Of a stretch of 64,000 bases of DNA, positions 61,501-64,000 are shown one piece after another (positions within the stretch are counted from its first letter, which is position 1; every line of letters begins with the position of its first letter). The stretch lies in NCBI RefSeq assembly GCF_057098645.1, contig NZ_CM169472.1; one strand, given 5' to 3'. The position numbers are program-made.

Positions 61501-64000
61501 TGGTCAGGGTGGAATGGGAACAAAATCCCACGATATTTTCACGCTACCGCTGTGTCGGGAGCATCACAACGAGCTTCATGCGGATCCGCTGGCGTTCGAA
61601 GAAAAGCATGGTTCCCAGGTTGATTTAATTTTTCGTTTTCTTGATCACGCCTTTGCAACCGGCGTGCTCGGGTAAAAGAGGTTACTGATGCGTATAGAGT
61701 TTGTTTTGCCTTACCCGCCGACGGTGAACACCTACTGGCGACGTCGTGGCAGCACATATTTTGTATCAAAAGCCGGTGAGCGTTATCGCCGGGCTGTGGC
61801 GCTTATTGTTCGCCAGCAGCGGCTGAAATTAAGCCTGTCCGGACGGCTGGCAATAAAAATTATTGCAGAACCACCGGATAAGCGCCGCCGTGACCTGGAC
61901 AACATTCTGAAAGCACCGCTGGATGCGCTGACGCATGCGGAAGTGCTCATTGATGACGAGCAGTTTGATGAAATCAATATTGTGCGCGGTCAGCCTGTGC
62001 CAGGTGGACGGCTGGGCGTGAAGATTTACGAAATCAGAGGTGGTAACGATGGCGCGTGATATCCAGATGGTTCTTGAGCGATGGGGGGCATGGGCAGCAA
62101 ATAATCATGAAGATGTAACATGGCCCTCGATAGCTGCTGGTTTTAAAGGATTAATCCCGACTAAAGTGAAATCACGTCCTCAGTGTTCTGATGATGACGC
62201 CATGATAATTTGTGGTTGTATGGCACGATTAAACAAGAATAATCAGTATTTGCACGATTTGTTGGTGGATTATTACGTAGGTGGAATGACATTTATGGCT
62301 CTTGCACGTAAGCATAGATGTTCTGATGGGCTTATTGGTAAAAGGCTTTATAAAGCGGAAGGTATTATTGAAGGAATGCTTATGGCTCTGAATGTCCGGT
62401 TAGATATGGATATGCGGTAGGGATATATAGTGATGAGGGTTATGTTTTCTGTGTTTATAATTAACATGTTTATTTTTTGATGGTCATGTATTGTGGAAGG
62501 TAGATAAAATGTTGCCTGGTGAATTGAAAATATTGATAATCAATCTTCATCATTAAATAAAAGGAGTGCTTATGTGGATTGTGTTAGTACTGTCACTGTC
62601 AACTCTCAGTTGGCATAAGGTAGTGGCTTTTTCATTGTTGACGGTGTCTGTTGTCCTGGCTGTGCTTAATGATATTATTGATTGGTCGGTGTTATTTTTT
62701 GTTGCTACAATCGTTTTTTTTATTATTTTGAAGTTCAACTGGAAATATAACGCCTGGGCTAAATCTATATATGAAGTTGGCATAGTTTTATCAGCCATAG
62801 CATTATCTTTCCATCTATGGCCAGGGTTTCACAATCCTGTAGTGCTAAATTCTGTTACTGTTGGCCCTCAAAGTACTCCCTATACAATGTATTTTAATTT
62901 TGATAAAGCGCTGGTGCCATTTTTGTTAGTCCTGTGTACATCTTCTTTGTTTAAAAAAGAAGTAAAATCAGAAGTGTCTTTGTGGAAGTGGGGGGCTCTG
63001 TCGCTCTCTGTTCCTCTTATCCTGTTTTTGGCTGTTTTTTTTGGTGGATTAAAGCCAGAGATTCATTTTCCTGAGTGGTTGCCAGAGTTTATATTGGCTA
63101 ATTTGTTTTTTGTGTCTCTGGCAGAGGAATCATTATTTAGAGGGTATATTCAATCACGGCTATCAGAAGTAACGTCTCCATTGGTTGCATTAATTGTGGC
63201 GGCTTTGTTGTTTGGTTTTTATCACTATTCAGGTGGTGCTTTACTTGTATTATTTGCCACGTTATCTGGTGTTGTGTATGGATTGTCATGGATGTGGAGT
63301 GGGCGTTTGTGGGTTGCCACCCTTTTCCATTTTGGTTTGAATCTGTGTCACTTGTTATTCTTTACCTATCCATTTTTAAAACATAATTGATTTTTTCTAT
63401 GGTTTTAAATTTATAAGACTGAAAAATAGCAGGACGTGACATTTGCATGAAAAATATGCACGGCAAAGCATTTACGTACGTAAAAAATCAGGTATGCTGT
63501 TAAGAGTGGTTATTTCGCCGCATAGCTTGACCCCGCCTCTGAGCGGGTTTTTTGTGCCCGCAAAGTAGCGCAGTGCGTTAAATGTGCTGGTAGTTATTAA
63601 TACAGGTCTTTCAGCTTGCTGGCTTTTTCGGCAAGAGTTATTGGTGTGTCACGTTAACCGGAAAGGGTAAAAAGACATGCTGAAACAGCAGGATATGACA
63701 GAAACCGCCAGAGTTGTGTTTGATGAATTAAGCGTCACCGAACCGGCGACAGTCGGGGAGATTGCGCAGAATACTTACCTTTCACGCGAACGCTGCCAGT
63801 TAATACTGACCCAGCTTGTTATGGCGGGTCTGGCAGACTATCAGTGCGGTTGTTACAGACGCCTTCAGTCCTGAAGGCTTTTTTATTTGTGGTAAATGGG
63901 CGGCTGGTGGGTGTTAGCGGCACCTGTCAGTCCTTTGCTTATGTGTTGATGATAATTTACCTTTTGGGGCTATAATTGAACTAACCAATTGCTAATGAAA

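Follow-up and report, generated by a model that had tools for sequence, protein, structure and literature searches.

Organization of the locus

In the 64,000-nucleotide (nt) stretch of contig NZ_CM169472.1 (NCBI RefSeq assembly GCF_057098645.1) analysed here, hereafter called the window, a gene encoding a CPBP/Rce1-like intramembrane glutamic endopeptidase (62572..63390, + strand; 272 amino acids (aa), ATG at 62572, stop codon ending at 63390) follows a Q antiterminator gene of the small QuuD type, Q21/Q933W family (PF06530; 62049..62420, + strand, 123 aa). The CPBP open reading frame (ORF) starts 151 nt after the end of this 123-codon Q gene at 62420. A Shine-Dalgarno sequence, AAGGAG (62561..62566, + strand), lies 5 nt before the ATG and was conserved among close variants. 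The gene is already annotated in RefSeq, under the name "CPBP family intramembrane glutamic endopeptidase" (WP_000265267.1); one of the new findings here is its co-divergence with Q under purifying selection.

An initial annotation had described the interval 62421-63554 as a self-contained, AT-rich CPBP-family gene placed downstream of Q and upstream of a candidate late promoter. Both statements on its position agreed with our data, as the gene lies between the PF06530-type Q gene (62049..62420) and the putative late promoter pR' at 63471-63498. However, pR' and its terminator tR' (63471-63553) lie inside that interval, where they had gone unrecognised. The gene was self-contained insofar as it has a promoter-like signal of its own, but the hairpin at 63532-63553 is the shared phage terminator tR' and not a private one. 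The GC content of the CPBP gene was indeed low (0.38), compared to 0.42 in the Q gene and 0.53 in the genes upstream of Q (60626-62039); as the drop begins inside Q, the AT-rich tract is not confined to the CPBP gene. Upstream of the locus, a hokD-type Hok toxin ORF (window 59966-60178) and the gene order DUF968-RusA-Q were observed. Rfam returned no match over 61900-64000 at E-values up to 1.

The predicted protein belongs to the CPBP family

PF02517 (Rce1-like) was the single Pfam domain in the predicted protein (E = 1.4e-19, score 70.6, residues 169-258) and the match spanned model positions 3-92 of 93. The profile search against the CPBP/Abi family suggested with the initial annotation was therefore significant, and all three family motifs named there were found: EExxxR as EESLFR (residues 185-190, nt 63124-63141), FxxxH as FGFYH (residues 214-218, nt 63211-63225) and HxxxN as HFGLN (residues 253-257, nt 63328-63342). 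In an alignment of 34 homologues E185, E186, R190, F214, H218 and H253 were invariant, and N257 was conserved in at least 90%. The protein is predicted to be polytopic, with about eight transmembrane helices and a conserved loop (residues 78-127), whose family-specific sequence (HLxPGFHNP...GPQSxPxxMYFNFDKALVPF) was strongly conserved in the same alignment. An AlphaFold (AF2) model built from these 34 homologues (pLDDT 94.9, pTM 0.92) matched the folds of SpdC and Rce1, with SpdC as the best structural match. Membership in the CPBP family is thus established by profile, motifs and fold, and protease activity itself is predicted only; a true protease is favoured over a scaffold because the catalytic residues are intact.

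We also compared the protein to the curated NCBIfam subfamilies (myxosortases MrtP/C/X/Z, MrtS, MrtJ, MroQ, ABC_perm_CPBP). The best scores, 46.2, 33.2 and 14.2 for cut-offs of 435, 250 and 270, respectively, reflected the shared domain only. As it remained below every curated cut-off, the protein is neither a myxosortase nor MroQ nor an ABC-fused form. PHROGs assigned it to phrog_13291, a family of unknown function, and a sequence search of the PDB gave no match. A full-text literature search combining CPBP or CAAX with prophage, Q, O157 or iron retrieved no paper on this gene or on a Q-adjacent CPBP gene. The terms CAAX, CPBP and Abi did not occur in the supplements of the enterohaemorrhagic Escherichia coli (EHEC) iModulon paper, and the StxS paper does not treat the prophage of the window.

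A conserved element 3' of the gene resembles a late promoter and terminator

The Q protein of the window is named "antiterminator Q family protein" in RefSeq, matched the Q21 structures 6p18/6jnx in a phmmer search (E = 7e-8), and is 86% identical to the Q of phage 434B/DLP12. For the Qs of the diverged Q-CPBP variants the PF06530 assignment was precomputed; PF06530 corresponds to the Q21/Q933W family (bioRxiv 10.1101/651190). In phage 21 (OL657228), the annotated pR' starts 7 nt after Q; its spacer contains two Q-binding repeats of 8 bp, and pR' is immediately followed by a pause element and a terminator.

In the window, an element of 90 nt, AAAGCA-TTTACG-TACGTAAAAAATCAGG-TATGCT-GTTAAGAGTGGTTA...hairpin-T6, is located 3' of the CPBP gene and was kept in all five diverged Q-CPBP modules. 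Among these modules, 63454-63500 formed a conserved non-coding island with unalignable flanks, and the intergenic region between Q and the CPBP gene could not be aligned in modules with a Q of about 80% identity. Based on conservation and on the analogy to phage 21, this element probably comprises the late promoter pR' (63471..63498, + strand; -35 TTTACG at 63471-76, 16-nt spacer, -10 TATGCT at 63493-98), a late-transcript leader (63499..63531, + strand; GTTAAGAGTGGTTAT...) that was conserved in alignment A3 and is the likely place of a sigma-dependent pause element, and the intrinsic terminator tR' (63532..63553, + strand; CCCGC-CTCTGA-GCGGG followed by T6), which was identified in the terminator scan. 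A 14-bp palindrome, TTTACGTACGTAAA (63471-84), is a candidate Q-binding element; it varied with Q, being altered to AACGCGTACGC in the element of strain SCU-387, where Q is only 49% identical. The hexamers of the putative pR' are weak (4/6 and 4/6), which speaks against this assignment.

The same promoter-terminator element was found upstream of the holin gene in phage 434B, which has a DLP12-type late region. There, the nmpC porin gene (reverse strand, disrupted by IS5) is located between QuuD and the shared element. The 434B record OL657227 (loci L020/L021) does not annotate this element as pR'. In strain SCU-387 (L015/L019) the 49%-identical Q is followed by dcm, by reverse-strand HEPN nuclease and DUF262 genes, and then by a pR'-like element; the dcm/HEPN/DUF262 set is probably a defence cluster. 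Homology among the 434B/DLP12, SCU-387 and window loci ended immediately 5' of the -35. Prophages with other Q families shared homology with the window exactly from the terminator onwards; in JJ2434, this terminator follows Q at a distance of about 80 nt.

From conservation, co-variation and analogy we infer that 63471-63553 is a Q-dependent late promoter pR' with its terminator tR'. If so, the CPBP gene occupies a cargo slot between Q and pR', and this slot and the candidate Q-binding palindrome are putatively defined here for the first time. The gene shows the features of a phage cargo gene ("moron"): a promoter-like site of its own, tR' on its 3' side, a GC content unlike that of the genes upstream of Q, and other cargo in the same slot of relatives. 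The initial annotation had likened its position to that of conversion genes in lambdoid phages. The interval between Q and the lysis genes is indeed a known cargo site, but stx lies after pR'/tR', and the CPBP gene before pR', in the slot of nmpC.

Further occupants and neighbours of this interval were observed. In E. coli RM9387 (L017 1751-2464), a gene for a 237-aa hypothetical protein lies between a lambda-type Q and the shared tR' and is thus another occupant of the Q-to-tR' interval. The prophage in L007 (6607-7833), whose CPBP variant is 84% identical, carries the stx1-like genes A (315 aa) and B (89 aa) 3' of the same pR' element, and its tR' hairpin looks degraded. The first ORF 3' of tR' in the window (63677..63874, + strand) encodes a hypothetical protein of 65 aa that is conserved in many lambdoid prophages; more than 1100 E. 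coli genomes had this ORF, with a DNA identity of about 85% and following several different Q families, and one record calls a relative "TrmB family transcriptional regulator".

Distribution and selection

The 1.2-kb region was found in 571 of 5426 complete E. coli genomes, nearly always with at least 99% identity, and the ORF was intact in these 571 genomes. The carriers were mainly EHEC, namely O157:H7 (including EDL933 and EC4115), O145, O26, O111, O121 and O55:H7. In the O145:H28 strain RM12761, which is 99.9% identical to the window, the equivalent prophage adjoins yccA, a position that we take to be the serT site used by CP-933M/Sp4-type prophages. This prophage also carries relBE and dicB. 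Strain E2855 was considered as a collinear guide to the immunity region of the window and was dropped, since it is not collinear there and RM12761 matches better.

Diverged variants of 84, 83, 62 and 59% identity were each located directly 3' of a PF06530 Q gene. In a clade of 55% identity (L025, L026 and L065), a lambda-type Q with its pR' and a strong terminator precedes the gene, and the holin gene follows it. The L025-type variant was not found in the E. coli genomes, and its flanks resemble the Salmonella phages Fels-1 and ST64B. In Dickeya, Providencia, Enterobacter and other Enterobacterales, full-length homologues of about 50% identity were found on the chromosome as single genes, in varied contexts. 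One of these, in Enterobacter asburiae (L006 5780-5870), lies just 3' of a tRNA-like sequence, as judged by eye, which would suggest acquisition at an integration hotspot.

The ratio of nonsynonymous to synonymous substitutions (dN/dS) of the CPBP gene was 0.12-0.30 across lineages. Its synonymous divergence (dS) was similar to that of the adjacent Q, with values of 0.3-0.5 in close pairs and saturation in distant pairs. As dN/dS is low and dS alike, the CPBP gene and Q have co-diverged under purifying selection. When a query joining the 3' end of Q straight to the sequence 3' of the CPBP gene was searched, this junction was found in none of the 5426 genomes; the Q allele of the window therefore never occurs without the CPBP gene in this set.

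These data also bear on the least credible explanation, that the gene is a decaying remnant without function: it is AT-rich, occurs only in integrated prophages and has no reported phenotype, but purifying selection across lineages saturated at synonymous sites, the invariant catalytic residues and the intact ORF in all 571 genomes contradict this idea.

The gene's own promoter and the Fur-like site

A consensus scan identified a candidate sigma-70 promoter of the CPBP gene (62512..62540, + strand) with a -35 TTGCCT (62512-17), a 17-nt spacer and a -10 GATAAT (62535-40), from which transcription is predicted to start near 62547. Although the sequences had turned over, four of five diverged variants had a promoter whose -10 ends 32-35 nt before the ATG. 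Comparison of 15 distinct close variants showed as invariant blocks the -35 (AAATGTTG), the spacer end together with the -10 (AAATATTGATAAT), and the ribosome-binding site. The terminator scan detected no terminator between Q and the CPBP gene, so that transcripts of the early operon are expected to read through into the gene after induction.

Fur sites were scored by consensus matching, and chance levels were obtained from shuffles (dinucleotide shuffles for the 151-nt intergenic region). The palindrome that had been described as resembling a Fur box, ATTGATAATCAAT (ATTGAT-A-ATCAAT, 62532-62544), is located inside the 19-mer AATATTGATAATCAATCTT (62529..62547, no strand assigned), which overlaps the -10 and the spacer and matches the consensus GATAATGATAATCATTATC at 14 of 19 positions. 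The resemblance was stronger in homologues (17/19 and 15/19, see below); in the window it is marginal when taken alone, the 3' half of the site varies and its perfect hexamer coincides with the -10. The palindrome was not enriched elsewhere in the window. The best match to the Fur consensus in the whole window was a different site, GATATTGATTATCGTTTAC (59582-59600, 15/19), about 165 nt upstream of an AT-rich, cargo-like alpha/beta-hydrolase gene (ORF 58645-59418, - strand).

It is nearly an even bet that there is no Fur control here at all. The palindrome would then be no more than the -10 GATAAT of an ordinary promoter together with its AT-rich flanks; H-NS might silence this promoter, and expression would be constitutive at a low level or would occur mainly after induction. 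Several observations weigh in this direction and against Fur control. A perfect palindrome with 6-nt arms (6-1-6) arose in 22% of the dinucleotide shuffles of the intergenic region; for a match of at least 14/19 the proportion was 4.4%, and 1.8% when the 100 nt upstream were shuffled instead; five sites reaching at least 14/19 were found in the 64-kb window. The perfect hexamer, GATAAT, is the promoter -10 itself. Invariance was limited to the 5' part, AAATATTGATAAT, which overlaps the -10; the 3' hexamer had five variants in close relatives, so that the dyad is not under visible selection. The 62% clade reached 13/19 at the same offset, the 59% clade 12/19 at best, and the 47% clade had no convincing match. 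In the chromosomal homologues (Dickeya, Providencia, Enterobacter, Pseudomonas), neither a Fur-like site nor upstream conservation was detected.

On the other hand, independent phage-borne clades with diverged flanks carried better boxes at the same place. In the 55% clade (L025/L065), GTTAATGATAAACATTATC matched the consensus at 17/19 positions on one strand and 16/19 on the other (shuffle p < 5e-5 for L025); this box overlaps a promoter (TTGAAG-17-CATTAT) and is found 36-54 nt upstream of the likely start. In the Salmonella homologue L023, GTTAATGATAAATGTTATC reached 15/19 at the same offset within otherwise different flanks (shuffle p = 0.002). The boxes of L025, L065 and L023 shared the register of the window site, 32-55 nt before the MW start, and the combined p-value (Fisher's method; independent clades, excluding those that generated the hypothesis) was 3e-4. 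Moreover, the invariant block of the close variants runs 7 nt into the spacer, which is usually unconstrained, and the region upstream of the stx1-like gene in L007, a real Fur-regulated phage gene region, scored the same 14/19 at best by the same measure.

With respect to L025, the called start of the 287-aa homologue (3001-3030) is probably 10 codons too early, the conserved MW start of the family being at 3031. A start at 3031 would place the 17/19 box 36-54 nt upstream instead of abutting the start codon.

Fur control of some phage-borne members of the family is therefore well supported by sequence comparison, and this comparative support for Fur boxes in the phage-borne CPBP lineage is new here. 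The 17/19 and 15/19 boxes of these diverged homologues, placed at the same offset, make iron control of the window gene plausible. That Fur binds over the -10 and spacer (62529-62547) of the window allele itself, with derepression in low iron, is a real possibility, which we would nevertheless place somewhat below even.

Possible function of the CPBP gene

The explanation we favour, and regard as fairly probable as a whole, is that the gene is lambdoid prophage cargo, a moron encoding a CPBP protease, in a prophage next to yccA/serT and between Q and the putative pR'. In the lysogen, it would be transcribed from its own sigma-70 promoter (62512-62540); after induction, read-through from the early operon would contribute, and both kinds of transcript would end at tR'. 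Fur bound at 62529-62547 would repress the gene and low iron would derepress it. Acting within the inner membrane, the protease would have a membrane-inserted peptide or protein as its substrate, and could protect the lysogen against a membrane-acting toxin or against a phage entering via iron-regulated TonB-dependent receptors.

A role in conversion or protection is favoured because the other occupants of the slot, a porin gene and a methylase/nuclease cluster, are lysogen-expressed cargo. Protection against toxins or phages that use Fur-regulated TonB-dependent receptors would, by analogy only, fit an iron-dependent expression. The specific proposal of an inner-membrane protease that shields the lysogen from a membrane-acting toxin or from a TonB-receptor-using phage is tentative, and we consider it rather unlikely to be right as it stands. 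More speculative still is a protease that is induced by iron starvation and shields EHEC or Salmonella lysogens when the TonB-dependent siderophore receptors are derepressed; within this narrower version, the protein might cleave or trap a membrane-acting siderophore-microcin or colicin, or a component of an incoming phage that uses these receptors. Three negative results count against the favoured explanation. PADLOC v2 (E up to 0.1) matched the protein to no defence family; no bacteriocin or toxin gene and no partner ORF adjoins the CPBP gene, its neighbours being Q, pR'/tR' and the 65-aa ORF; and a tblastn search found no homologue in 50,697 sequenced phage records.

Alternatively, the protease may serve the phage or the cell envelope. 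It would then be produced from the delayed-early transcript that also encodes Q, and would modulate proteins of the envelope, peptidoglycan hydrolases or the timing of lysis, either as an SpdC-like partner or as a processing protease. We regard this as unlikely. The missing terminator between Q and the CPBP gene would allow such co-expression, and the gene was always located in the Q-to-lysis interval, even next to a non-homologous lambda-type Q, where it follows pR'/tR' and precedes the holin gene. The best structural match, SpdC, is a partner of the SagB glucosaminidase, and a Pseudomonas aeruginosa homologue (L069 4001-8367, L024; identity of about 60% across 75% of its length) is part of the cluster gpmI - CPBP - M23 (EnvC-like) - S41 CtpA-like - PF04748. 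However, relatives with the same Q type hold unrelated cargo in the slot, so that the CPBP gene is not needed for Q or for lysis. In addition, the enterobacterial chromosomal homologues are singletons in varied contexts, the catalytic residues are intact, unlike in SpdC-type scaffolds, and a private promoter fits expression in the lysogen.

A further alternative concerns the regulatory layout: the late promoter could lie upstream of the CPBP gene, which would then be inside the pR'-tR' leader, with the direct repeats ATTGAAAA/ATTGATAA (62523-62539) as the Q-binding element (QBE). These repeats resemble the QBE subsites ATTGAGCA/AATGAGCA of phage 21, which sit in the spacer of that promoter; a -10-like CATCAT is found at 62548-62553, and tR' lies 3' of the gene. 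We nevertheless judge this layout very improbable. The intergenic region between Q and the CPBP gene was unalignable where Q is about 80% identical, the repeats were lost in L012 and L014, and 63471-63553 was kept in all modules; it was also kept in 434B/DLP12, whose Q is 86% identical and where nmpC separates Q from the element. The Fur-like site read as a Q-binding element (ATTGAAAA-T-ATTGATAA) was likewise rejected, since this region is not conserved where Q is, and 63471-63553 is.

Under the favoured cargo explanation, the gene may matter beyond this prophage. It is present in about one tenth of complete E. coli genomes, including O157:H7, O145, O26, O111 and O121 EHEC, and sits in the regulatory centre of Stx-type prophages. 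If controlled by Fur, it would join stx1 as iron-responsive phage cargo and could affect the competition of EHEC in the iron-poor gut. If iron-induced protection were true, the protein would be the first immunity or exclusion factor of the CPBP family to be described in Enterobacteria, and its gene the second Fur-controlled cargo gene of Stx-type phages. The Q-to-pR' slot and the candidate Q-binding palindrome may in turn aid the reading of late-gene, and hence stx, regulation in QuuD-type prophages.

Comparison with known systems

The window protein shares profile, motifs and fold with known CPBP/Rce1-like proteases (Methanococcus maripaludis Rce1, Staphylococcus aureus SpdC/LyrA, MroQ); in contrast to these, it is phage-borne and has the family-specific loop 78-127. 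The Abi/CPBP proteins PlnI, PlnLR and SkkI of Gram-positive bacteria reportedly confer self-immunity to bacteriocins. They belong to the same family as the window protein, for which a membrane-protective role is plausible; however, their genes lie inside bacteriocin operons, whereas the window gene is found in E. coli with no toxin gene nearby.

With respect to regulation, a close parallel is stx1 of Stx1-converting phages, a cargo gene between Q and the lysis genes that has its own promoter and is repressed by Fur. Both stx1 and the CPBP gene are cargo in a lambdoid late-regulatory region and have a private promoter with a Fur-type box, which in the case of the CPBP gene is a candidate. The CPBP gene of the L025 clade resembles stx1 also in its position after pR'/tR', while that of the window lies before pR'. 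The product of stx1 is a secreted toxin, that of the CPBP gene a predicted membrane protease.

The nmpC/lc porin gene of DLP12, PA-2 and phage 434B occupies the same slot as the CPBP gene, is likewise AT-rich lysogenic-conversion cargo and accompanies the 86%-identical QuuD-type Q; it differs in encoding an unrelated protein of the outer membrane and in being located on the opposite strand. The cassette of phage 21 (Yin, Kaelber and Ebright 2019; OL657228) has a Q of the same family and, as in the window, a promoter followed by an intrinsic terminator within about 50 nt. In phage 21, however, pR' is located 7 nt after Q, whereas in the window about 1.05 kb of cargo lies between them, and the QBE of phage 21 consists of two direct 8-bp repeats, whereas the candidate in the window is a 14-bp palindrome.

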